Of a stretch of DNA of 64,000 nt, positions 23,302-38,486 are shown piece after piece; position 1 is the first letter of the stretch, and the number at the start of each line of letters is the position of its first letter. The notes beneath the pieces are model-generated. The model saw only the letters and a list, made by a program, of their open reading frames with translations, was not told the DNA's origin and ran no database searches. The stretch is from assembly GCF_046105845.1 (NCBI RefSeq), contig NZ_CP151004.1; one strand, given 5' to 3'. The stretch comes from Escherichia coli. Its GTDB lineage: Bacteria; Pseudomonadota; Gammaproteobacteria; Enterobacterales; Enterobacteriaceae. Made by a program: the position numbers and the translations under genes.

Positions 23302-24012
23302 GTGAAATACAAATTACTGCCATGCTTACTCGCGATATTCCTCACAGGATGTGACCGCACAGAGGTAACACTTTCATTTACCCCTGAGATGGCCAGTTTC
23401 TCTAATGAATTCGATTTTGATCCGCTGCGTGGTCCGGTAAAAGATTTCACTCAGACATTAATGGATGAGCAAGGTGAAGTGACGAAACGTGTTTCGGGGA
23501 CTTTGTCGGAAGAAGGCTGTTTTGATTCACTCGAATTACTGGATCTGGAAAATAATACCGTGGTTGCCCTGGTACTGGACGCCAATTATTACCGTGATGC
23601 CCAGACACTGGAGAAAAGAGTTCGTTTGCAGGGAAAATGCCAGCTAGCAGAATTACCTTCTGCAGGGGTGAGTTGGGAAACCGATGATAATGGCTTTGTG
23701 ATTAAAGCCAGCAGCAAACAGATGCAGATGGAATATCGCTATGATGATCAGGGTTATCCGCTGGGTAAAACCACGAAAAGTAACGACAAAACATTATCTG
23801 TTAGCGCTACGCCATCAACGGATCCGATCAAAAAATTAGATTACACAGCGGTTACTTTACTGAATAATCAAAGGGTTGGTAATGTAAAACAGAGCTGTGA
23901 ATATGACAGTCACGCCAATCCGGTGGACTGTCAGCTAATCATTGTTGATGAAGGAGTAAAACCCGCCGTCGAACGGGTTTACACCATCAAAAATACTATC
24001 GATTATTATTAA
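23302..24012 (+). CDS. ynfC: UPF0257-family lipoprotein
   Basis: GTG start at 23302 gives MKYKLLPCLLAIFLTGC with lipobox LTGC, 236 aa. ORF track begins at ATG 23266, which would add 12 residues. Confidence 0.8.
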   Translation: MKYKLLPCLLAIFLTGCDRTEVTLSFTPEMASFSNEFDFDPLRGPVKDFTQTLMDEQGEVTKRVSGTLSEEGCFDSLELLDLENNTVVALVLDANYYRDAQTLEKRVRLQGKCQLAELPSAGVSWETDDNGFVIKASSKQMQMEYRYDDQGYPLGKTTKSNDKTLSVSATPSTDPIKKLDYTAVTLLNNQRVGNVKQSCEYDSHANPVDCQLIIVDEGVKPAVERVYTIKNTIDYY

Positions 24013-24014
24013 TG

Positions 24015-24575
24015 CTATTGTGCGGTCGGCTTCAGGAGAGTCTGACCCGGTGTTTTGTGCTCTGCCAGATACTGATGCTGGAATATGCACATGCGAATGG
24101 CATTCCGATATTGACCATTAATAAAGAACTCATGCATCAATTCACCTTCAACCGTAAAGCCAAGCTTGCGGTAAATGTGAATCGCTTTTTCATTCTCTTT
24201 ATCGACGATCAGATACAGCTTATAGAGATTAAGAACGGTGAAGCCATAGTCCATTGCTAATTTTGCGGCACGCGTTGCCAGACCTTTCCCCTGATATTCC
24301 GGGGAGATAATTATCTGAAATTCTGCGCGGCGATGAACATGGTTAATTTCCACCAGCTCCACCAGACCGGCTTTTTCGCCGTCACATTCCACCACAAAGC
24401 GCCGTTCGCTCTGATCGTGAATATGCTTATCGTACAGATCAGAGAGTTCAACAAAGGCTTCGTAGGGTTCCTCAAACCAGTAACGCATCACACTGGCGTT
24501 ATTGTCGAGTTGATGTACATAGCGTAAATCTTCACGCTCCAGCGGGCGTAGCTTAACACTGTGGGCGCTTGGCAT
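24015..24575 (-). CDS. speG: Spermidine N1-acetyltransferase
   Basis: 186-aa GNAT acetyltransferase ([39 protein letters not shown]...); matches SpeG; downstream of ynfB in the same orientation. Confidence 0.92.
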
Positions 24576-24609
24576 AACGTGTCCTTACATTCCTTAAATC
24601 AATAACAGG

Positions 24610-24951
24610 TTAGGGGGTAATAACGCGGCCAGTTCGACGGTCCAGGCAGCGCAAAGTATTTGGCTCCCAGTAGGCATTGATGTTGGCGCTTTGCTCACAT
24701 TTATCGCGGTTATCAAAAGCGGCGTCGGCTTTATCCCACTCTTTTTCAGTGCGTTTATTCACTTTCTGGCGCAGATTGCGCGTGTCATTCCATTGCTCTT
24801 TTTCCATAGCGGCGTGCTGGCGGCTTTGCGCACTGTCGCCAGACTCAATCACCAGTTTGTTAGTTTCGGCATGAACAGTTGTGCTCAATGCCATTGCGCA
24901 AGGCAGCAGAAAAGCGAGCAGGCCAATTCGTTTGCTGAGAGTAATTTTCAT
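24610..24951 (-). CDS. ynfB: UPF0482-family secreted protein
   Basis: 113-aa ORF with signal peptide [28 protein letters not shown]; upstream of and co-oriented with speG. Confidence 0.85.
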
Positions 24952-25085
24952 AATTCATTCCCTGTATGAATGATTAAAGGTGATTCTACACCATCCACAG
25001 CGAACGCAAAACGTACCAGGAGGGTGTTTATATTGATGATATTATGTCGCCCTATAACTATACATGATGTCAATAAGTGACAAAG

Positions 25086-25412
25086 ATGATTAAAACAACG
25101 TTACTATTTTTTGCTACTGCGCTGTGTGAAATTATTGGATGCTTTCTGCCCTGGTTGTGGTTAAAACGAAACGCCAGTATCTGGCTGTTGCTTCCGGCGG
25201 GGATTTCACTGGCGCTGTTTGTCTGGTTGTTAACGTTGCATCCTGCGGCGAGTGGGCGTGTTTACGCGGCTTATGGTGGCGTTTATGTCTGCACGGCGTT
25301 GATGTGGCTGCGCGTTGTGGATGGCGTGAAACTGACTCTTTATGACTGGACGGGGGCGTTGATTGCGCTTTGCGGCATGTTGATCATTGTTGCGGGATGG
25401 GGGCGCACGTAG
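25086..25412 (+). CDS. ynfA: UPF0060-family small membrane protein
   Basis: Start trimmed to ATG 25086 ([26 protein letters not shown]...), 108 aa, four TM helices. Confidence 0.85.
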
Positions 25413-25617
25413 GAACATAAATCCATTTTATCAATAAGATACGAGGAAGTGTCAGCTGACAAAAGGTATTCTATTTCATCTTTTGTCAACCATTCACAGC
25501 GCAAATATACGCCTTTTTTTGTGATCACTCCGGCTTTTTTTGATCTTCATACTTGTATGGTAGTAGCTCAGTTGCGTAGATTTCATGCATCACGACAAGC
25601 GATGCAAGGAATCGAAC

Positions 25618-26832
25618 ATGAATATCGTAAAGGCTGAAGTTTTTGTTACCTGTCCGGGGCGTAATTTCGTCACATTAAAAATCACCACTGAGGACGGTAT
25701 TACGGGCCTTGGGGATGCCACCCTCAATGGACGTGAGCTTTCCGTGGCCTCTTATTTGCAGGATCACCTTTGTCCGCAGCTTATTGGTCGCGATGCACAC
25801 CGTATCGAAGATATCTGGCAGTTTTTCTATAAAGGAGCTTACTGGCGTCGCGGCCCGGTGACGATGTCGGCCATTTCAGCGGTTGATATGGCGCTGTGGG
25901 ATATTAAAGCCAAAGCTGCCAACATGCCGCTTTACCAGTTACTCGGCGGCGCGTCTCGTGAAGGGGTGATGGTTTATTGCCATACCACCGGTCACAGTAT
26001 TGATGAAGCTCTGGATGATTATGCCCGTCATCAGGAGCTGGGATTCAAAGCCATCCGCGTGCAGTGCGGAATCCCTGGTATGAAAACCACCTACGGCATG
26101 TCGAAAGGTAAAGGTCTGGCTTATGAACCCGCAACCAAAGGACAGTGGCCGGAAGAGCAGCTGTGGTCGACGGAGAAATACCTCGATTTCATGCCGAAAT
26201 TGTTTGACGCGGTACGTAACAAGTTTGGTTTTAATGAACATTTGCTGCATGACATGCACCATCGCTTAACGCCTATTGAAGCGGCGCGCTTTGGTAAAAG
26301 CATTGAAGATTATCGCATGTTCTGGATGGAAGACCCGACGCCTGCGGAAAACCAGGAATGCTTCCGTCTCATTCGCCAACATACCGTCACACCCATCGCG
26401 GTGGGTGAAGTCTTCAACAGCATCTGGGACTGCAAGCAACTGATTGAAGAGCAACTTATCGATTATATCCGCACTACGCTGACCCACGCGGGTGGCATTA
26501 CCGGTATGCGCCGGATTGCCGATTTTGCTTCGCTGTATCAGGTACGTACTGGCTCACACGGTCCTTCCGATTTGTCACCAGTCTGCATGGCTGCGGCGCT
26601 GCACTTTGATCTGTGGGTCCCCAATTTCGGTGTCCAGGAATACATGGGTTATTCCGAACAAATGCTCGAAGTCTTCCCGCACAACTGGACTTTCGATAAC
26701 GGCTATATGCATCCGGGAGACAAACCGGGTCTTGGCATCGAATTCGATGAAAAGCTGGCGGCGAAATATCCCTATGAACCTGCTTATCTGCCAGTCGCAC
26801 GTCTGGAAGATGGCACGCTGTGGAACTGGTAA
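25618..26832 (+). CDS. rspA: Starvation-sensing protein RspA (enolase-superfamily mannonate/altronate dehydratase-like)
   Basis: Start trimmed to ATG 25618 ([40 protein letters not shown]...), AAGGA RBS, 404 aa. ORF track begins at 25585. Confidence 0.92.
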
Positions 26833-26843
26833 GGAGTAAGATA

Positions 26844-27863
26844 ATGAAAAGCATTTTAATTGAAAAACCGAATCAACTGGCAATTATCGAACGTGAAATA
26901 CCCACCCCGTCAGCGGGTGAAGTACGAGTAAAAGTGAAACTTGCCGGGATTTGTGGTTCAGATAGCCATATTTATCGTGGGCATAATCCTTTTGCGAAAT
27001 ATCCGCGCGTCATTGGACATGAATTCTTTGGCGTCATTGATGCAGTGGGTGAAGGCGTGGAAAGCGCCAGAGTCGGTGAACGCGTTGCTGTCGATCCGGT
27101 GGTCAGCTGTGGGCATTGCTATCCGTGCTCTATAGGTAAGCCGAACGTTTGTACGACACTGGCTGTATTAGGTGTGCACGCTGACGGTGGTTTCAGTGAA
27201 TATGCCGTGGTTCCGGCAAAAAATGCGTGGAAAATTCCTGAAGCAGTGGCCGATCAATATGCGGTGATGATCGAACCTTTTACCATTGCGGCTAACGTAA
27301 CCGGTCATGGTCAACCGACTGAAAATGATACCGTTCTGGTTTACGGTGCCGGTCCAATCGGCCTGACGATCGTTCAGGTATTAAAAGGCGTCTATAACGT
27401 TAAAAATGTGATTGTTGCCGATCGCATTGATGAACGACTGGAAAAAGCGAAAGAGAGCGGGGCTGACTGGGCGATTAATAACAGCCAGACACCGCTTGGC
27501 GAGATTTTCGCTGAAAAAGGCATAAAGCCGACATTAATTATCGATGCGGCTTGTCATCCTTCTATCCTGAAAGAGGCCGTAACGCTGGCTTCTCCAGCGG
27601 CACGTATTGTATTGATGGGCTTCTCCAGTGAACCGTCTGAAGTGATTCAGCAAGGAATTACCGGAAAAGAACTCTCTATTTTCTCTTCACGCTTAAATGC
27701 AAATAAATTCCCGGTCGTTATCGACTGGTTAAGTAAAGGGTTAATTAAACCAGAAAAATTAATTACCCATACGTTTGATTTCCAGCATGTTGCTGATGCC
27801 ATTAGTTTATTTGAACAGGATCAAAAACATTGCTGCAAAGTCTTACTCACTTTTTCTGAATAA
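26844..27863 (+). CDS. rspB: Starvation-sensing protein RspB (zinc-dependent medium-chain dehydrogenase)
   Basis: Start trimmed to ATG 26844 (MKSILIEKPNQLAIIER...), AAGGAG RBS, 339 aa; zinc-ligand motifs GHEF and CGHCYPC. ORF track begins at 26820. Confidence 0.92.
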   Translation: MKSILIEKPNQLAIIEREIPTPSAGEVRVKVKLAGICGSDSHIYRGHNPFAKYPRVIGHEFFGVIDAVGEGVESARVGERVAVDPVVSCGHCYPCSIGKPNVCTTLAVLGVHADGGFSEYAVVPAKNAWKIPEAVADQYAVMIEPFTIAANVTGHGQPTENDTVLVYGAGPIGLTIVQVLKGVYNVKNVIVADRIDERLEKAKESGADWAINNSQTPLGEIFAEKGIKPTLIIDAACHPSILKEAVTLASPAARIVLMGFSSEPSEVIQQGITGKELSIFSSRLNANKFPVVIDWLSKGLIKPEKLITHTFDFQHVADAISLFEQDQKHCCKVLLTFSE

Positions 27864-27920
27864 TACCAATAACGGCGAGTAAGTAGTACGCATCTTACCT
27901 CTTTTTTAGAGATAACCATT

Positions 27921-29288
27921 ATGACAATAGAAAAACACGAAAGAAGCACTAAGGATTTGGTGAAAGCAGCAGTATCGGGATGGCTGGGCACTGCGCTTGA
28001 ATTTATGGATTTCCAGTTATATTCGCTCGGCGCAGCGTTAGTGTTTCATGAAATATTTTTTCCTGAATCATCAACGGCAATGGCGTTAATTCTGGCAATG
28101 GGAACCTACGGTGCAGGTTATGTGGCGCGTATTGTCGGAGCATTTATTTTCGGCAAAATGGGCGACAGAATCGGGCGTAAAAAAGTGCTCTTTATTACCA
28201 TCACTATGATGGGGATCTGTACCACCTTAATTGGTGTGCTGCCGACCTATGCACAAATTGGTGTGTTTGCGCCAATTTTGCTGGTGACGCTGCGTATTAT
28301 TCAGGGGCTGGGGGCAGGCGCGGAAATTTCCGGTGCCGGCACGATGCTGGCGGAATATGCACCAAAAGGTAAGCGCGGAATTATCTCCTCATTTGTGGCT
28401 ATGGGAACTAACTGCGGAACCTTAAGCGCAACGGCAATCTGGGCCTTTATGTTCTTCATTCTCAGTAAAGAAGAACTGCTGGCGTGGGGATGGCGTATAC
28501 CGTTCCTGGCGAGCGTTGTCGTGATGGTCTTTGCTATCTGGTTGCGTATGAATCTGAAAGAAAGCCCGGTCTTTGAGAAGGTTAACGACAGCAACCAACC
28601 GACAGCAAAACCTGCACCTGCTGGTAGCATGTTCCAGAGCAAATCCTTCTGGCTGGCAACAGGGCTGCGTTTTGGTCAGGCTGGTAACTCCGGTTTAATT
28701 CAGACTTTCCTTGCAGGCTATTTAGTACAGACGTTATTGTTTAACAAAGCAATTCCAACAGATGCATTGATGATCAGTTCGATTCTCGGCTTTATGACCA
28801 TTCCGTTCCTTGGTTGGTTATCCGATAAAATTGGTCGCCGGATCCCGTATATTATTATGAATACCTCCGCGATTGTGCTGGCATGGCCAATGCTTTCTAT
28901 CATCGTAGATAAAAGCTATGCCCCGAGCACCATTATGGTTGCACTGATTGTGATTCATAACTGTGCGGTGCTGGGATTATTTGCTCTGGAAAACATTACC
29001 ATGGCAGAAATGTTCGGCTGTAAAAACCGCTTTACCCGGATGGCTATTTCTAAAGAAATTGGTGGTCTTATCGCTTCCGGTTTTGGTCCTATTCTGGCGG
29101 GTATTTTCTGCACCATGACGGAATCCTGGTATCCGATCGCCATTATGATCATGGCATATTCAGTGATTGGTTTAATCTCTGCGCTGAAAATGCCAGAAGT
29201 GAAAGACCGTGATTTAAGTGCGCTGGAAGACGCTGCGGAAGATCAACCGCGTGTTGTCAGAGCTGCGCAACCTTCCAGAAGTCTTTAA
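27921..29288 (+). CDS. ydfJ: MFS metabolite:H+ symporter-family transporter (full length)
   Basis: Uninterrupted 455-aa 12-TM ORF directly downstream of rspB; in K-12 (from memory) this gene is split by the Qin prophage. Confidence 0.88.
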   Translation: MTIEKHERSTKDLVKAAVSGWLGTALEFMDFQLYSLGAALVFHEIFFPESSTAMALILAMGTYGAGYVARIVGAFIFGKMGDRIGRKKVLFITITMMGICTTLIGVLPTYAQIGVFAPILLVTLRIIQGLGAGAEISGAGTMLAEYAPKGKRGIISSFVAMGTNCGTLSATAIWAFMFFILSKEELLAWGWRIPFLASVVVMVFAIWLRMNLKESPVFEKVNDSNQPTAKPAPAGSMFQSKSFWLATGLRFGQAGNSGLIQTFLAGYLVQTLLFNKAIPTDALMISSILGFMTIPFLGWLSDKIGRRIPYIIMNTSAIVLAWPMLSIIVDKSYAPSTIMVALIVIHNCAVLGLFALENITMAEMFGCKNRFTRMAISKEIGGLIASGFGPILAGIFCTMTESWYPIAIMIMAYSVIGLISALKMPEVKDRDLSALEDAAEDQPRVVRAAQPSRSL

Positions 29289-29296
29289 ATCCTCAA

Positions 29297-29325
29297 TCCC
29301 TTCTCTTACCGGAGAGGGGATTTTT
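29297..29325 (+). terminator. Intrinsic terminator after ydfJ
   Basis: 9-bp stem TCCCTTCTC / GGAGAGGGA (one G-U pair, loop TTACCG) followed by TTTTT at 29321-29325, 9 nt after the ydfJ stop. Confidence 0.65.
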
Positions 29326-29376
29326 ATTCATATAACAAAACATGTAGCTTGCCATATTTATATTTAAGGAATTGTT

Positions 29377-30837
29377 ATGGGAAATAATTTGTTATCAGCA
29401 AAAGCGACACTCCCTGTTTATGATCGTAATAACCTGGCCCCAAGAATTGTTCATTTAGGCTTTGGTGCATTTCACCGTGCGCATCAGGGCGTGTATGCCG
29501 ATATTCTTGCTACGGAACATTTCAGTGAATGGGGATATTATGAGGTCAACTTAATCGGCGGCGAACAGCAAATTGCCGATTTACAACAGCAAGATAATCT
29601 TTATACCGTTGCGGAAATGTCGGCCGATGCGTGGACGGCTCGCGTCGTTGGCGTCGTTAAAAAAGCCTTGCACGTACAGATTGATGGCTTAGAAACCGTG
29701 TTGGCTGCGATGTGTGAACCGCAAATCGCGATTGTCTCTCTGACAATCACCGAAAAAGGGTATTTCCACTCTCCGGCGACCGGACAGTTAATGCTCGATC
29801 ACCCGATGGTCGTTGCCGACGTACAAAATCCCCACCAGCCGAAAACTGCAACAGGGGTGATTGTCGAGGCGCTGGCTCGCCGTAAAGCGGCAGGACTTCC
29901 CGCATTTACCGTCATGTCATGTGACAACATGCCAGAAAACGGTCATGTTATGCGTGACGTTGTCACTTCCTACGCGCAAGCCGTTGATGTAAAACTGGCA
30001 CAATGGATCGAAGATAACGTGACTTTCCCATCAACAATGGTAGACCGTATTGTGCCCGCAGTGACAGAGGATACGCTGGCGAAAATCGAACAACTTACCG
30101 GTGTGCGCGATCCTGCTGGCGTTGCCTGTGAACCTTTCCGCCAGTGGGTAATAGAAGATAATTTTGTTGCCGGACGTCCGGAATGGGAAAAAGCGGGAGC
30201 CGAACTGGTTAGTGATGTGCTGCCTTATGAAGAGATGAAGTTGCGCATGCTCAACGGCAGTCATTCATTCCTGGCGTATCTGGGTTATCTTGCTGGATAT
30301 CAGCACATTAATGACTGTATGGAAGATGAACATTATCGTCATGCGGCATATGCCTTGATGTTGCAGGAACAAGCGCCGACGCTGAAAGTGCAGGGTGTTG
30401 ATTTGCAAGATTACGCTAACCGATTAATTGAACGCTATAGCAACCCGGCGCTACGTCATCGAACCTGGCAGATTGCGATGGATGGCAGCCAGAAATTGCC
30501 ACAGCGGATGTTGGATTCTGTTCGCTGGCATCTGGCGCATGACAGCAAGTTCGATCTGCTGGCGCTGGGCGTCGCAGGTTGGATGCGTTATGTCGGTGGT
30601 GTTGATGAACAGGGAAATCCGATAGAAATCAGTGACCCACTGTTACCTGTTATTCAGAAGGCTGTACAAAGTAGTGCCGAAGGGAAAGCGCGCGTCCAGT
30701 CATTGCTGGCGATTAAGGCGATCTTTGGTGATGATTTGCCAGACAATAGCTTGTTTACTGCAAAAGTGACGGAAGCGTACTTGTCTTTATTAGCGCATGG
30801 TGCGAAAGCGACCGTGGCGAAATATTCCGTGAAGTAA
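29377..30837 (+). CDS. ydfI: Mannitol dehydrogenase-family oxidoreductase
   Basis: 486-aa ORF with N-terminal NAD-binding region ([15 protein letters not shown]); long-chain mannitol dehydrogenase family. Confidence 0.9.
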
Positions 30838-30865
30838 AAAAAGCAATGCCGCCATCGGCGGCATT
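30835..30865 (-). terminator. Intrinsic terminator downstream of ydfZ
   Basis: Stem AATGCCGCC-atc-GGCGGCATT located 8 nt past the ydfZ stop; on the minus strand it is followed by a U-run (plus-strand AAAAAAA at 30836-30842). Confidence 0.65.
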
Positions 30866-30872
30866 CACACGC

Positions 30873-31076
30873 TTAGTTCATGCCGAGACGAATCAGGTCC
30901 AGAGGTGCCAGTTTCTCTTCACAACCTTCAACAACTACGGTTTTTCCGCGGCGGATTTGCTCAGCGGTCAGACCTTCAGTATCAATCGACAGGATCTTGC
31001 CAGTGTGACCGGTGCCGCTAACCATAACACGGCTGCCAGTGGTGATTGCGTTACGGTTACGATCGTAGGTCGTCAT
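30873..31076 (-). CDS. ydfZ: Small DUF1471-related protein YdfZ
   Basis: 67-aa [70 protein letters not shown]; matches YdfZ as recalled. Confidence 0.85.
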
Positions 31077-31157
31077 AGGTGTTTTCTCCTTTCTGATTTA
31101 CAGTCGAAGCCCACGTAACGGGCGCAATATAAATACTCCTGTCGAGTGAAATATTTT

Positions 31158-31171
31158 TTGTTTTTGATCAA
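31158..31171. promoter_or_regulatory. FNR-like site upstream of ydfZ
   Basis: TTGTTtttgATCAA (one mismatch to the FNR consensus), centred about 88 bp upstream of the ydfZ start; ydfZ is strongly FNR-activated per literature recall. Confidence 0.4.
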
Positions 31172-31252
31172 GCTCACATCTTTTTTGATGCATGCATGAG
31201 CCATAAGGCGGGGGGAAAGACTCTCACCCCGGATGGGATGAGAGGAAATGAA

Positions 31253-31939
31253 TTACTCTTCGCTAAACCAGTCGCTGTTTTCCTGACGGATCTGGCGCAC
31301 GGATTCGCTGATTTCCTGCAAATGTTGCGTCATTGCACGTTCTACCGCATCGCCATCACGTTTTTGCAGGGCAGAGAAAATCTCAAGATGCTGGCGTAAC
31401 AGCATTTCTGGTGGAGAAACGTGGTCGAAACTCATATAGCGCACGCGATCAACGGTCGCTTTCAGGTTCTCAATGGTATCCCACGCCAGTTGACAGTCGG
31501 CAATCTGGGTCAGGAGTTGATGGAAGTTGTCATCAAGTTCAAAAAAATCATCCAGTTGTTTGCGCTCAATGGCAATGCGTTGCTGGTGAAGATTTTGTTC
31601 CAGTTGGTAGCACTGGCTTTCGGTAATCATGCTCGCCGCCCGACGCGCCACCGCGCACTCAATGGCCTGACGGATAAAACTGCCGTTGCGCACCTGGGCC
31701 ATGGAAATTTTGTTGACGTAGCTGCCACGCTGTGGACGAATTTGAATCAGGCCGTTTTCCGCCAGTTTAATAAAGGCTTCACGAACCGGCTGGCGTGACA
31801 CATTGAAACGAACAGAAACTTCTTTTTCCGACAACGGTGTGCCTGGAGCAATCAGGCAATGGACAATGTCGCGACGAAGGATACGATAAATTTGCTGATT
31901 GACAGGCTGTGTGGGATTAAGTTGCGTTTCGACGGTCAT
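31253..31939 (-). CDS. ydfH: GntR/FadR-family transcriptional regulator (RspR)
   Basis: 228-aa protein with N-terminal GntR wHTH and FCD-type C-terminal domain. Confidence 0.9.
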
Positions 31940-32027
31940 TCGTTCTTGCTTGTGAGTGAGTTAACTGCATGAGTCTACCACTTTTTTGTGACAAGCAATA
32001 ACCCGGCAGTTACGCCGGGTATAAAAA

Positions 32028-32774
32028 TTACTGACGGTGGACATTCAGTCCGGCATAGCTTTGGGTAACCGGCATCATTTCCAGGGTATTGATATTGACG
32101 TGAGCAGGCAGCGTTGACACCCACCAGACGGCTTCGCTGACATCTTCTGGCGTCAATGCAACGGTATTTTGATAGGTTTTTTCCGCTTTACCGTCATCGC
32201 CTTTAAAGCGGACATTGGAAAACTCGGTGCCACCCACCAGACCCGGTTCGATGTCGGTGACGCGCACCGCCGTACCATGCAGGTCCGTACGCAGATTCAG
32301 GCTAAACTGACGAACAAACGCTTTCGTCGCACCGTAAACGTTACCACCGGCATACGGCCAGCTACCTGCCGTTGAGCCAATGTTAATAATATGACCATGA
32401 TTACGTTCAACCATACCCGGTAAGACGGCGCGCGTCATATATACCAGGCCTTTGTTGTTGGTATCAATCATCGTTTCCCAGTCTTCAACGCTGGCTTTAT
32501 GCGCAGGCTCCATGCCCAACGCCAGGCCGGCATTATTTACCAGGATATCAATATTGCACCACTCGGCAGGAAGCGATGCCAGCATCTCTTCAATAGCGGC
32601 GCGGTTGCGAACGTCCAGTTGGGCGATATACAGATTATCTCCCAGTTCGTCTTTTAACTCCTGCAACCGTTCCTGGCGACGGCCAGTGGCGATAACTTTA
32701 TGCCCTTGTTGAATAAAACGACGAGTAATGCATTCACCAAAACCTGCCGTTGCTCCAGTTACTAAAACGATCAT
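32028..32774 (-). CDS. ydfG: NADP-dependent 3-hydroxy acid dehydrogenase (SDR family)
   Basis: Start trimmed to ATG at 32772-32774 (MIVLVTGATAGFGE...), 248 aa; SDR motifs TGATAGFG and YGATK. ORF track begins at 32789. Confidence 0.92.
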   Translation of the reverse strand: MIVLVTGATAGFGECITRRFIQQGHKVIATGRRQERLQELKDELGDNLYIAQLDVRNRAAIEEMLASLPAEWCNIDILVNNAGLALGMEPAHKASVEDWETMIDTNNKGLVYMTRAVLPGMVERNHGHIINIGSTAGSWPYAGGNVYGATKAFVRQFSLNLRTDLHGTAVRVTDIEPGLVGGTEFSNVRFKGDDGKAEKTYQNTVALTPEDVSEAVWWVSTLPAHVNINTLEMMPVTQSYAGLNVHRQ

Positions 32775-32910
32775 CTCACTGTTCCTCAACGCTTTTGTGT
32801 GTCAATAACATAGCACGTGATGCTTAAGAGCGGGTAATACTGGTTTGCAAGATTGCACTCCGTTATCAGTAAGCCTACGCTATGGAACACCTCGCGTTCA
32901 GGAGAAGAAA

Positions 32911-34956
32911 ATGACAACAATGAATCCTTTCCTTGTGCAAAGCACACTGCCGTATTTGGCTCCCCATTTTGATCAAATTGCCAATCATCACTATCGCCCG
33001 GCATTCGATGAGGGAATGCTGCAAAAGCGGGCAGAAATTACTGCCATCGCGCTTAACCCGCAAACGCCTGATTTCAACAATACTATTCTGGCACTGGAAC
33101 AAAGCGGAGAATTACTTACCCGCGTTACCAGCGTCTTTTTTGCGATGACTGCGGCGCATACTAATGATGAATTACAGCGTCTTGATGAACAGTTTTCCGC
33201 TGAACTGGCGGAACTGGCTAATGATATCTATCTGAACGGTGAATTATTCGCGCGGGTAGATGCTGTCTGGCAACGCCGTGAATCCCTGGGACTTGATAGT
33301 GAATCCATCCGCCTGGTGGAGGTCATTCATCAACGTTTTGTCCTTGCCGGAGCCAAACTTGCACAAGCTGATAAAGCAAAATTAAAAGTACTGAATACAG
33401 AAGCTGCGACTCTGACCAGCCAGTTTAACCAGCGGTTACTGGCAGCAAATAAATCCGGCGGTCTGGTTGTGAACGATTTCGCGCAGCTGGCAGGAATGAG
33501 TGAGCAAGAGATTGCTCTGGCGGCAGAGGCGGCTCGCGAGAAAGGTCTGGATAACAAATGGCTGATTCCGTTGCTGAATACCACCCAGCAACCAGCGCTT
33601 GCTGAACTGCGCGATCGCGCGACGCGTGAAAAACTGTTCACTGCGGGCTGGACGCGAGCGGAAAAAAATGATGCCAATGATACCCGCGCTATCATTCAAC
33701 GTCTGGTGGAGATCCGCGCGCAGCAGGCGAAACTGCTTGGTTTCCCTCATTATGCCGCATGGAAAATCGCCGATCAGATGGCAAAAACGCCAGAAGCAGC
33801 ACTCAACTTTATGCGGGAAATTGTTCCAGCGGCGCGTCAACGTGCGAGCGATGAATTAGCCTCTATACAGGCGGTTATCGATAAGCAGCAGGGCGGGTTT
33901 AGCGCGCAGCCGTGGGACTGGGCATTTTATGCCGAGCAGGTAAGACGTGAGAAATTCGATCTCGATGAATCGCAGCTCAAGCCATATTTTGAATTAAACA
34001 CGGTGTTGAATGAAGGTGTATTCTGGACCGCGAATCAGCTCTTCGGTATTAAGTTTGTCGAACGTTTTGATATTCCTGTCTACCATCCTGACGTTCGTGT
34101 GTGGGAAATTTTTGATCATAATGGCGTGGGGCTGGCGTTATTTTACGGTGATTTCTTCGCCCGTGATTCAAAAAGCGGCGGTGCATGGATGGGCAATTTT
34201 GTTGAGCAATCAACGCTTAATGAAACGCACCCGGTAATTTATAACGTCTGCAATTATCAGAAACCCGCCGCTGGGGAGCCTGCGTTGTTACTCTGGGATG
34301 ATGTAATAACCTTATTCCATGAATTTGGTCATACGCTGCACGGCCTCTTTGCCCGCCAGCGTTATGCCACGCTTTCCGGCACCAACACGCCGCGTGATTT
34401 TGTCGAATTTCCGTCGCAAATCAACGAACACTGGGCAACGCATCCGCAGGTATTCGCTCGCTACGCCCGGCATTATCAGAGCGGGGCAGCAATGCCTGAC
34501 GAACTGCAACAGAAAATGCGTAATGCCAGCCTGTTCAATAAAGGGTATGAGATGAGCGAACTGCTTAGCGCCGCACTTCTCGATATGCGCTGGCATTGCC
34601 TGGAAGAAAACGAAGCAATGCAGGATGTCGATGATTTCGAATTGCGGGCGCTGGTGGCGGAAAATATGGATCTTCCCGCTATACCGCCACGCTATCGCAG
34701 CAGTTATTTCGCCCATATTTTTGGTGGCGGATATGCCGCAGGTTATTACGCTTATCTGTGGACACAAATGTTGGCCGATGATGGTTACCAGTGGTTTGTT
34801 GAGCAGGGCGGATTAACGCGTGAAAATGGGCTGCGTTTTCGCGAGGCGATCCTATCCAGAGGTAACAGCGAAGATCTGGAACGCCTGTATCGACAATGGC
34901 GCGGTAAGGCACCTCAGATTATGCCGATGCTGCAACATCGTGGCTTGAACATATAA
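32911..34956 (+). CDS. dcp: Peptidyl-dipeptidase Dcp (M3 metallopeptidase)
   Basis: Start trimmed to ATG 32911 (MTTMNPFLVQSTLPYLAPHF...), GGAGAAG RBS, 681 aa; zinc motif HEFGHTLH. ORF track begins at 32845. Confidence 0.95.
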   Translation: MTTMNPFLVQSTLPYLAPHFDQIANHHYRPAFDEGMLQKRAEITAIALNPQTPDFNNTILALEQSGELLTRVTSVFFAMTAAHTNDELQRLDEQFSAELAELANDIYLNGELFARVDAVWQRRESLGLDSESIRLVEVIHQRFVLAGAKLAQADKAKLKVLNTEAATLTSQFNQRLLAANKSGGLVVNDFAQLAGMSEQEIALAAEAAREKGLDNKWLIPLLNTTQQPALAELRDRATREKLFTAGWTRAEKNDANDTRAIIQRLVEIRAQQAKLLGFPHYAAWKIADQMAKTPEAALNFMREIVPAARQRASDELASIQAVIDKQQGGFSAQPWDWAFYAEQVRREKFDLDESQLKPYFELNTVLNEGVFWTANQLFGIKFVERFDIPVYHPDVRVWEIFDHNGVGLALFYGDFFARDSKSGGAWMGNFVEQSTLNETHPVIYNVCNYQKPAAGEPALLLWDDVITLFHEFGHTLHGLFARQRYATLSGTNTPRDFVEFPSQINEHWATHPQVFARYARHYQSGAAMPDELQQKMRNASLFNKGYEMSELLSAALLDMRWHCLEENEAMQDVDDFELRALVAENMDLPAIPPRYRSSYFAHIFGGGYAAGYYAYLWTQMLADDGYQWFVEQGGLTRENGLRFREAILSRGNSEDLERLYRQWRGKAPQIMPMLQHRGLNI

Positions 34957-34967
34957 ACACCACCAAT

Positions 34968-34997
34968 GGCTGGCCTGGAGAAATCGCCAGGCCAGCC
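34968..34997. terminator. Strong hairpin after dcp (terminator-like, no clear U-tract)
   Basis: Perfect 11-bp inverted repeat GGCTGGCCTGG-agaaatcg-CCAGGCCAGCC, 11 nt after the dcp stop and directly before the ydeJ-like remnant. Confidence 0.45.
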
Positions 34998-35000
34998 TGG

Positions 35001-35078
35001 TTAGAGCAGTAATTGCAGCAGCTGGGCGAGGGCAAACCTCACCGCTAATGCGAATGCCGTTTCGCAGTCGCCAGCAAA
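35001..35078 (-). pseudogene. ydeJ: 3'-terminal remnant of a CinA-C/PncC-like gene (ydeJ-like); remainder absent
   Basis: Minus-strand frame ends ...SNFAGDCETAFALAVRFALAQLLQLLL-stop, resembling the C-terminus of CinA-C/PncC-family proteins; upstream sequence is AT-rich with no CinA-like coding. The dcp-ydeI gap is only 364 bp, too short for a 172-aa gene. Confidence 0.4.
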
Positions 35079-35320
35079 ATTACTTTTTTTGTATACCCTT
35101 CCGTTATAATAATTTTCAAATTTATAAATCTGATTGTTCTGAAATATGTTTAAGACTCTTTAATCTTCTTCTTACTTTAGTGAGTAAAATTCTCTGAATA
35201 TTTGACAGCTAGTTGCCTGATTTTAAATGCCTTATAACAATTGGCAGTATTCTTATTTGTCAATTATAAAAATAGCAACCAGACTTAATAAGTCAAACCA
35301 AACGCAATTAAGGAGTCAGT

Positions 35321-35713
35321 ATGAAATTTCAGGCCATTGTATTAGCAAGTTTTCTTGTCATGCCTTATGCGTTGGCAGATGACCAGGGCGGATTAAAACA
35401 GGATGCAGCGCCACCGCCGCCTCATGCAATAGAAGATGGCTATCGCGGAACCGATGATGCAAAAAAAATGACCGTTGATTTCGCAAAAAAAATGCACGAT
35501 GGCGCTTCGGTTTCACTACGCGGTAATTTGATTTCTCACAAAGGAGAGGACCGTTACGTTTTTCGCGATAAGAGCGGTGAAATTAATGTTGTTATTCCTG
35601 CGGCAGTCTTTGATGGACGAGAAGTTCAGCCGGACCAGCTGATCAACATTAGCGGTAGTCTGGATAAGAAAAGCGCTCCGGCCGTCGTTCGGGTCACTCA
35701 TTTGCAGAAATAA
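35321..35713 (+). CDS. ydeI: BOF (YgiW/YdeI) family periplasmic OB-fold stress protein
   Basis: 130-aa ORF with signal peptide [19 protein letters not shown] and OB-fold domain; matches YdeI. Confidence 0.88.
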
Positions 35714-35967
35714 AAATAAATTAGCCTGATGGCCTGAACTACTGGGCCATTAGGTTATTGGGTTATGCTATTTATCATCCTTTTAATTGCGATAATGCAG
35801 GGTTAATTTACAGAATTAAACACTTTTTTATCTGCTGATTTTGTTTCAAATCACAATGTTATCTCAGAGATGACTCATAACTTAGGATTTCTATGAAAAT
35901 ATTGACGTAATTTTGCTTTTCTCTCGTTAGAATAGCGCGCACAAGGAACTGTGAAAAAGGAGTGGCA

Positions 35968-36858
35968 ATGATCAAGAAGACAACGGAAATTGATGCCATC
36001 TTGTTAAATCTCAATAAGGCTATCGATGCCCACTACCAGTGGCTGGTAAGTATGTTTCACAGCGTAGTCGCGAGAGATGCCAGTAAGCCAGAAATAACGG
36101 ATAACCATTCTTATGGACTGTGCCAGTTTGGTCGGTGGATTGATCATCTGGGGCCACTCGATAACGATGAATTACCTTACGTTCGGCTAATGGATTCTGC
36201 CCATCAACATATGCATAACTGTGGTCGGGAATTAATGCTGGCTATTGTTGAAAATCACTGGCAGGACGCGCATTTCGACGCCTTTCAGGAAGGGTTGCTT
36301 TCTTTTACTGCGGCATTAACCGATTACAAAATTTATTTGCTGACGATCCGTAGCAATATGGATGTTTTGACGGGATTGCCGGGTCGTCGGGTTCTTGATG
36401 AATCCTTTGATCATCAGTTACGCAACGCTGAGCCTCTGAATCTTTATTTAATGTTGTTGGATATTGACCGATTTAAATTGGTTAATGATACCTACGGGCA
36501 TTTAATCGGCGATGTAGTACTACGCACCCTGGCAACTTACTTAGCCAGTTGGACGCGTGATTACGAAACGGTTTATCGCTACGGGGGGGAAGAATTTATC
36601 ATTATTGTTAAAGCGGCTAATGATGAAGAAGCATGTCGTGCAGGTATCAGAATTTGCCAGTTAGTCGATAACCATGCCATCACACATTCTGAAGGGCATA
36701 TCAACATTACCGTGACTGCAGGTGTGAGTCGCGCATTTCCTGAAGAGCCTCTGGATGTGGTCATTGGAAGAGCGGACCGGGCAATGTATGAGGGTAAGCA
36801 AACCGGAAGAAATCGCTGTATGTTTATTGACGAACAAAATGTGATTAACCGAGTTTAA
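35968..36858 (+). CDS. dgcZ: Zinc-sensing diguanylate cyclase DgcZ
   Basis: Start trimmed to ATG 35968 (MIKKTTEIDAILLNLNKAIDAHYQW...), AAAGGAG RBS, 296 aa; N-terminal CZB zinc-binding domain, C-terminal GGDEF domain with RYGGEEF. Confidence 0.9.
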   Translation: MIKKTTEIDAILLNLNKAIDAHYQWLVSMFHSVVARDASKPEITDNHSYGLCQFGRWIDHLGPLDNDELPYVRLMDSAHQHMHNCGRELMLAIVENHWQDAHFDAFQEGLLSFTAALTDYKIYLLTIRSNMDVLTGLPGRRVLDESFDHQLRNAEPLNLYLMLLDIDRFKLVNDTYGHLIGDVVLRTLATYLASWTRDYETVYRYGGEEFIIIVKAANDEEACRAGIRICQLVDNHAITHSEGHINITVTAGVSRAFPEEPLDVVIGRADRAMYEGKQTGRNRCMFIDEQNVINRV

Positions 36859-36974
36859 GCTCCGTTTAACATTCATTGAGAAAACTGATGCTACTGTGTC
36901 AACGATCCGTTATCAGTGCAGGAAAATGCCTGTTAGCGTAAAAGCAAAACACAAATCTATCCATGCAAGCATTC

Positions 36975-37001
36975 ACCGCCGGTTTACTGGCGGTTTTTTT
37001 T
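36975..37001 (+). terminator. Intrinsic terminator downstream of dgcZ
   Basis: Stem ACCGCCGG / CTGGCGGT (loop TTTA) followed by TTTTTTT at 36995-37001. Confidence 0.7.
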
Positions 37002-37007
37002 CGCCGT

Positions 37008-37049
37008 CATAAAAATCAGGCCCCTTGTACACAACTGTAACAAGGGGCC
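37008..37049 (-). terminator. Intrinsic terminator downstream of mgtS
   Basis: Perfect 10-bp inverted repeat GGCCCCTTGT-(11 nt)-ACAAGGGGCC; on the minus strand it is followed by UGAUUUUUAUG. Confidence 0.65.
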
Positions 37050-37076
37050 GGTTAGGTGAGGGATTATCTCCGTTCA

Positions 37077-37172
37077 TTAGTCATCCCATTTGTGGCTGAA
37101 ATACGCGGCCAGAAAACCAGAAAATAAAATTATTCCCAGTACGGCCATAAAAACATTCATATTACCCAGCAT
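37077..37172 (-). CDS. mgtS: 31-aa small inner-membrane protein MgtS (YneM)
   Basis: Minus-strand ORF MLGNMNVFMAVLGIILFSGFLAAYFSHKWDD with GGAGG RBS 7 nt upstream; exact match to the MgtS sequence as I recall it. Below the ORF-track length cut-off. Confidence 0.85.
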   Translation of the reverse strand: MLGNMNVFMAVLGIILFSGFLAAYFSHKWDD

Positions 37173-37298: not shown

Positions 37299-38486
37299 TC
37301 AACAAAGCGCGGGCTGCCCCCACGGTCTTGCACGAATTCCTTTTAACATCAGCACCCACGCAGCAATAATCACCAACGCTAAGATGATAAACAGCGAGGA
37401 AGGCGGCAGGTTGGTTAGCACTACGCCACTCACTAATGGGTTAATCGCGGCACCAAGCCAGCCTAAAGACTGGGCGGAAAAATAGCTGGCTTTCATTCCT
37501 GGCGGCGCAATATGGTCAATCAACATATACTCGCCCGGCGCATAAATGATTTCACCGACAGTAAATACCGCAGCTGACATACCCCACAATAGCAGGCTGT
37601 TGCCGGAAAAAATAAAACCGACCAGACCGATGACGAAACAGAGGGTGCCTGCTGTCATCAGCGTGCGGATGTTAGCCGGGTTAAGTCGCCGGCCCACGGA
37701 ATATTGCAACGTAACTACCATGGCAGCATTCACTGGAAGAACAACCGCGACCACCTTTTCGGCAAAATCCCCATCAGCAATCACCATCACATATTGTGAA
37801 ATGCATGAAGCAAATGCGCCGCTAACAAAAGAAGCCAGAAAGCCAGAGCAGGTAAACCACAACAGTGCTTTATCTTGTAATAAAACTTTCGGCGACCAGG
37901 CACTGGCTGTTTCCGTGGCGATGATTTTCTCGCTGCGCTTTACCCAAATTTGAATGAAAAGCATGGGAAACGCGGAACAGATAGCTGCCAGCCAAAAGGG
38001 CAGATTGATGCTCTGCATCACCAACAGCGTGCCGAGCGGCGGACCGATGGTCCAGCCAATGTTGAGCATGGTGTAGTTGATTGAGAAGATTTTCGTTTTG
38101 CTGGTGGACGAAAGATTGTCGGCAAACCAGGCTTTCAACACAGTAGCAAAAACGGAATAGGCGCAGTTAATGAGGGCAAAAAAGAGCACCACCAGCGTCA
38201 CGTTATTCACTAAAGGAATGGCAATAAAACCGCAGGCGAAGGCGGTAATTGCCAGTAACATATAGCGTTTCTTGTCGAACTTATCCGCCAGGATACCAAA
38301 ACCGAGGCTAAAAACGACGCCAATAGTGAGCGCAATTGTCATCGCATAACCGATTAGATCGACACTCAGGCTGTACTGGCGACTCAAGTAAATGGTCATA
38401 AACGGCAGCGTAGCGCCGCGTCCGATGGTTAATAACAACGACGAGGCAAGAAGGGCGCTGGTAGAGCGTCGTAGGGATAAGTTCAT
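37299..38486 (-). CDS. ydeE: MFS-family exporter
   Basis: 395-aa 12-TM MFS protein; position between mgtS and eamA matches ydeE. Confidence 0.9.
   Translation of the reverse strand: MNLSLRRSTSALLASSLLLTIGRGATLPFMTIYLSRQYSLSVDLIGYAMTIALTIGVVFSLGFGILADKFDKKRYMLLAITAFACGFIAIPLVNNVTLVVLFFALINCAYSVFATVLKAWFADNLSSTSKTKIFSINYTMLNIGWTIGPPLGTLLVMQSINLPFWLAAICSAFPMLFIQIWVKRSEKIIATETASAWSPKVLLQDKALLWFTCSGFLASFVSGAFASCISQYVMVIADGDFAEKVVAVVLPVNAAMVVTLQYSVGRRLNPANIRTLMTAGTLCFVIGLVGFIFSGNSLLLWGMSAAVFTVGEIIYAPGEYMLIDHIAPPGMKASYFSAQSLGWLGAAINPLVSGVVLTNLPPSSLFIILALVIIAAWVLMLKGIRARPWGQPALC

Follow-up and report, generated by a model that had tools for sequence, protein, structure and literature searches.

The window, as we call the whole 64-kb stretch of Escherichia coli DNA analysed here, contains a gap of 364 bp (34957-35320) between two intact genes, dcp and ydeI. 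The first of them, dcp, encodes peptidyl-dipeptidase Dcp and occupies 32911-34956 on the plus strand in the ORF listing, with its stop codon at 34954-34956; its CDS is 2046 bp long in annotated homologous RefSeq loci, and identity to E. coli dcp is 97-98%. On the other side of the gap, ydeI (35321-35713, plus strand) encodes an OB-fold stress protein of the YdeI family (NCBIfam NF007471, E 3e-77). The surrounding genes are ydfG (32028-32789, minus strand) to the left, and to the right dgcZ (35962-36858, plus strand), the small minus-strand ORFs mgtT (36973-37077) and mgtS (37077-37172), and ydeE (37299-38486, minus strand). Many E. coli chromosomes in RefSeq match positions 24000-34950 of the window with 99.4% identity.

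Between the same two genes, K-12 has ydeJ, a 519-bp minus-strand gene (b1537; 1901-2419 of the K-12 locus L002) that is convergent with dcp. An earlier note on this DNA had considered 364 bp too short for the ~172-aa YdeJ and proposed that the gene is reduced here to a short 3′ remnant. The gap length is confirmed, and the reduction is borne out by tblastn, alignments and RefSeq annotation. Starting from dcp, the gap contains an inverted repeat that can form a hairpin on both strands between the stop codons of dcp and ydeJ (34968-34997), an 81-bp ydeJ pseudogene remnant on the minus strand (35001-35081, the last 26 codons and the stop codon at 35001-35003), a deletion junction at 35079/35080, and the kept part of the divergent ydeJ-ydeI intergenic region (35080-35320). 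The last of these includes the ydeI upstream region and aligns with 2455-2694 of the K-12 locus.

Among the neighbouring genes, a strong Rfam match to the Hfq-binding sRNA STnc560 (281.9 bits) was found at 36870-37083 on the plus strand, directly downstream of dgcZ and antisense to mgtT and mgtS. In strain 2014C-3050 (L006 1-557), dcp is annotated as frameshifted, and ydeJ is intact there. For Shigella flexneri 301, two candidate sRNAs supported by RT-PCR, Ssr13 and Ssr37, have been placed in the ydeJ/SF1559 intergenic region (PMC4782007).

The ydeJ remnant and the deletion junction

Translation of the minus strand of 35001-35120 gives FENYYNGRVYKKSNFAGDCETAFALAVRFALAQLLQLLL followed by a stop codon, with NFAGDCETAFALAVRFALAQLLQLLL as its end. 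In tblastn, residues 147-172 of K-12 YdeJ (172 aa) align in this predicted frame to window 35081-35004 with 88.5% identity over 26 aa, at E 2.5e-9 when the whole 64-kb window is searched and 3.9e-13 when the search is limited to the gap, and the rest of YdeJ has no other match anywhere in the 64-kb window. At the DNA level, 75 of the 79 bases of 35001-35079 are the same as in K-12, and 77 of 79 are the same as in L010, a progenitor-type allele described below. Homology to YdeJ begins at FAGDCE, at the junction. The C-terminal tail that the earlier note had read from the minus strand is confirmed, except that its leading S, strictly also its N, are not homologous to YdeJ. The same note had described an AT-rich sequence after the remnant, and GC content indeed changes from 0.54 to 0.27 past 35079; this AT-rich DNA is what is left of the ydeJ-ydeI intergenic region.

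About 15% of ydeJ is left, which no longer includes the catalytic-fold core, a start codon or a ribosome-binding site. The remnant offers a GTG giving 13 aa as its sole in-frame start, and the ORF listing of the window has no ORF of ≥20 aa in this frame. Judged from its sequence, the remnant is predicted to be untranslatable, and the strain is expected to have no YdeJ protein because the ydeJ fragment cannot be translated. With respect to the YdeJ family (PF02464; NF002972), homology to YdeJ and the position between ydeI and dcp are present, and a full-length ~150-aa domain with intact frame and start is absent. Since only residues 147-172 remain, without an ORF, the remnant counts as a pseudogene, not as a functional PF02464 or NF002972 protein. 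A 49-aa ORF on the plus strand that spans the junction (35048-35197) was rejected as spurious; it lacks a Shine-Dalgarno sequence and varies among alleles in its C-terminus.

Global alignment with the K-12 interval, a check that had been proposed together with the tblastn search, sets the endpoints: a single clean gap of 475 bp with colinear flanks. Relative to L010, the nearest haplotype with a full-length ydeJ, 466 bp are missing (~470 bp overall). The lost segment comprises ydeJ codons 1 to ~143-146 (codons 1-143 when L010 is the reference) and 35 bp upstream of the start. At the junction, …GCCAGCAAAA is joined to TTACTTTTTTT…, and the T at 35080 can be assigned to either side, which leaves 1 nt of microhomology between the breakpoints. 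The alignments show no IS remnant, no inverted repeats and no target-site duplication at this position, but a direct join of chromosomal DNA. The junction is identical in every deletion allele that was read, namely the window, AR_0067, 19KM1776, CUVET17-1418, MEI003 and JJ1887; besides the window, the aligned deletion alleles are the loci L001, L003 (JJ1887), L004, L008 and L009. An assembly or sequencing artefact confined to the window is practically inconceivable as the origin of the junction, and it is refuted by the presence of the same junction in 1630 independently finished genomes. From the identity of the junction, rather than from a genome phylogeny, we infer a single origin of the deletion, and its mechanism may have been slippage or end-joining at minimal homology. 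No evidence contradicting the deletion itself was found.

Ancestral state, progenitor haplotype and population spread

A bare length difference between K-12 and the window, and nothing more, would agree with an insertion of ydeJ in the K-12 lineage, in which case the short form would be ancestral. However, the short form holds an in-frame 3′ piece of ydeJ with its stop codon. Moreover, ydeJ lies between dcp and ydeI not only in K-12, as the earlier note had expected for reference genomes, but also in outgroups. Gene order is EamA-MFS-GGDEF-BOF-CinA-M3-SDR in E. fergusonii and MgtS-BOF-CinA-KGG-M3-SDR in Salmonella enterica, and a divergent Escherichia with ~88% identity to the window again has ydeJ between ydeI and dcp. 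This synteny in three outgroups means that presence of the gene is ancestral and that the window represents a loss. An insertion in K-12 is thereby refuted, and we give it hardly any credence.

Outgroup synteny was taken from protein look-ups, and a search of species-representative genomes with a degenerate pattern for the dcp C-terminus returned one locus, in Escherichia sp. MOD1-EC7003 (L005 10246-10685). This genome has an independent, larger deletion, in which dcp, followed by the hairpin and the 3′-most 44 bp of ydeJ, runs directly into dgcZ, of which the final ~57 bp remain; mgtS-ydeE are also absent, and dcp therefore adjoins eamA and marRAB. Evidently the dcp-ydeI neighbourhood is dispensable, having lost DNA more than once, and each loss ends short of the dcp-proximal hairpin.

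Compared with K-12-type alleles, deletion alleles carry fixed differences clustered on both sides of the junction, 3 in the remnant and ~10 in the first 45 bp to its right. Full-length ydeJ with these deletion-type differences was found in none of 3617 RefSeq complete E. coli genomes. A protein search, however, returned a 169-aa YdeJ with the deletion-type end …ETAFALAV… from an E. coli contig (L010 2966-3510, Logan SRR33953888), the sole progenitor-type full-length allele, in one assembly. Its gene order is normal (ydeE-mgtS-dgcZ-ydeI-ydeJ-dcp-ydfG), its dcp is 98.3% identical to that of the window, and its ydeJ has ≤95.5% identity to any ydeJ among 3618 RefSeq complete genomes. Because the deletion-type SNPs are present in L010 on either flank, the breakpoints are resolved to 1 nt, and the clustered differences predate the deletion. 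These differences mark a distinct old haplotype rather than decay after the deletion. In the assembled L010 ydeJ, 9 bp are missing in frame from the conserved GGPEGG, part of the motif GYGGPEGGEDG that is invariant elsewhere. This is a hint that ydeJ may have been impaired on this type of haplotype already before the large deletion.

The spread of the alleles was surveyed in 5426 complete E. coli genomes with a 60-mer probe of the junction. The probe matched 1630 genomes (30%), 735 of them at ≥99% identity over the 60-mer, and the deleted segment was present in 3618 genomes, at full length in 3607. Strains with intact ydeJ include K-12, O157:H7 TW14359 and O26 RM8426. A second junction was found in 1039 of the 1630 genomes with the ydeJ deletion, corresponding to 19% of the 5426. 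It reflects the loss of window 35123-35626, a segment of 504 bp with TT microhomology just to the right of the ydeJ junction, and has cost ydeI its promoter and about 101 codons, leaving the last ~29 codons of the gene. Among the genomes with the second deletion are JJ1887, an O25b:H4 strain and a Nissle derivative, all of which we take to belong to phylogroup B2. The window-type allele, with ydeJ remnant and intact ydeI, accounts for about 590-680 genomes. In the doubly deleted JJ1887 (L003 2902-3110), a 53-aa plus-strand ORF begins antisense to the ydeJ remnant and runs in frame through both junctions into the ydeI tail; such an ORF in doubly deleted genomes is probably due to chance.

We are highly confident that ydeJ survives in the dcp-ydeI gap only as a dead 3′ fragment, left by one deletion of ~470 bp, which is now a common polymorphism of E. 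coli. In the sequence of events that we propose, a single illegitimate recombination with 1 nt of microhomology would have occurred on a distinct E. coli haplotype. It would have deleted ydeJ from its start codon up to codon ~143-146, together with the ribosome-binding site and the 35 bp nearest to the gene on the promoter side, so that the final 26 codons with their stop and the hairpin common with dcp stayed behind; dcp and ydeI are unharmed. Later, in the ST131/Nissle-type lineage, the second deletion of 504 bp would have removed the ydeI promoter and about 101 codons.

The hairpin, a residual transcript and the loss of YdeJ

The palindrome at 34968-34997 has a perfect 11-bp stem and an 8-nt loop. 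It starts 11 nt past the dcp stop codon and lies 3 nt past that of ydeJ, in agreement with the earlier description of a palindrome abutting the remnant. Folding energies are -28.8 kcal/mol on the plus strand (z -4.7) and -30.5 kcal/mol on the minus strand (z -4.1), and none of 200 shuffled sequences matched this stability. All alleles that were examined keep the hairpin, and so does Escherichia sp. MOD1-EC7003. Its probable role is to stop transcription of both convergent genes, dcp and ydeJ. A consensus terminator scan of the window did not call it, because no run of ≥5 T follows the stem. A need of dcp for this hairpin may have set the left-hand limit of the deletion.

In another reading, the remnant and the surviving ydeJ promoter region would produce a selected short non-coding RNA, for example a supercoiling-responsive sRNA, starting in 35213-35262 and ending at the 34968-34997 hairpin. 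Promoter-like sites that formerly were upstream of ydeJ are retained on the minus strand at 35296-35269 and 35247-35220, and are also present in K-12; the numbers of such consensus matches, however, are not enriched (2 versus 1.4 ± 1.4 in shuffled sequence). The strong hairpin would supply a 3′ end, and in Salmonella the promoter of ydeJ is active and responds to supercoiling (PMC7387798). In the 364-bp gap of the window, an Rfam scan with E up to 10 gave only noise matches far under gathering scores. The remnant persists without further erosion in 1630 genomes, and the independent deletion in MOD1-EC7003 likewise spares the hairpin together with the 3′-most 44 bp of ydeJ, but a 79-bp fragment is expected to persist under neutral evolution as well. 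Nor does the remnant seem more conserved than its neighbours in a small sample: its nucleotide diversity is 0.023, compared with 0.016-0.018 at all sites of dcp and ydeI, for 79 bp, 5 sequences and 3 segregating sites. Third-codon-position diversity in dcp and ydeI is 0.038-0.046, and the value of the remnant lies below this only within noise. Taken together, a selected RNA seems very improbable to us, and we regard the remnant as a dead gene fragment.

The earlier description of YdeJ as CinA-C/PncC-like was right at the family level, since YdeJ belongs to the CinA C-terminal/PncC family (PF02464, TIGR00199). E. coli YdeJ has been reported to lack NMN deamidase activity and to have Y58F and N60D substitutions (PMC3855486), and the region of these positions is wholly absent from the remnant. 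The NCBI name for YdeJ is '2-oxo-tetronate isomerase' (equivalog NF002972). The experimentally validated E. coli 2-oxo-tetronate isomerase (EC 5.3.1.35) is b2739, at an unrelated locus (PMC12506659), and we looked for a basis of the NF002972 name and found none; as a product name for YdeJ it looks questionable.

In Salmonella, YdeJ has been renamed RdsA; its promoter is repressed by negative supercoiling, and deletion of rdsA makes DNA more supercoiled (PMC7387798). Given that RdsA reduces negative supercoiling in Salmonella and is expressed from a supercoiling-sensing promoter, E. coli strains with the deletion (~30%) might have a shifted supercoiling set-point. By this analogy, loss of ydeJ/rdsA, and then of ydeI in the ST131/Nissle-type lineage, could be adaptive rather than neutral decay, and the retained promoter and remnant might perhaps still make a non-coding transcript that reports supercoiling. 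We consider this unlikely as a whole. A window-type strain also amounts to a natural knockout of a gene with feedback on DNA supercoiling in Salmonella, and an isogenic comparison could reveal whether YdeJ has a supercoiling role in E. coli.

Comparison with annotated alleles and known systems

The ydeJ remnant alone has little significance, and automatic annotation flags the pseudogene in hundreds of RefSeq genomes. RefSeq PGAP annotates the same 81 bp in many genomes as a pseudogene, 'incomplete; missing N-terminus', and for this reason loss of ydeJ is routine and known: it is a real, common and already annotated gene-loss polymorphism. The present analysis adds the exact endpoints, the allele frequencies, the second, nested loss that reaches into ydeI, a rare full-length allele of the deletion haplotype and a parallel loss in another Escherichia species. 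The three states of the locus (ydeJ intact, ydeJ deleted, ydeJ and ydeI deleted) can be used as a clean and phylogenetically informative marker.

The RefSeq pseudogenes AM446_RS29110 (AR_0067), AX202_RS30880 (JJ1887) and NF099_RS10950 have the same 81 bp, the same junction and the same dcp-relative coordinates as the window. Within this group, the window allele has ydeI intact as in AR_0067, unlike the doubly deleted form of JJ1887. Compared with E. coli K-12 ydeJ and Salmonella rdsA, the window remnant has the same strand, position, stop codon and downstream hairpin, but keeps residues 147-172 only. Like bidirectional intrinsic terminators between convergent genes, the hairpin of the window is a stable GC-rich stem with 11 perfect base pairs. 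Unlike them, it is without a canonical U-tract on either side, and its tails, AUUGGUGGUGUUUAUAU on the minus strand and UGGUUAGAGC on the plus strand, are weakly U-rich.
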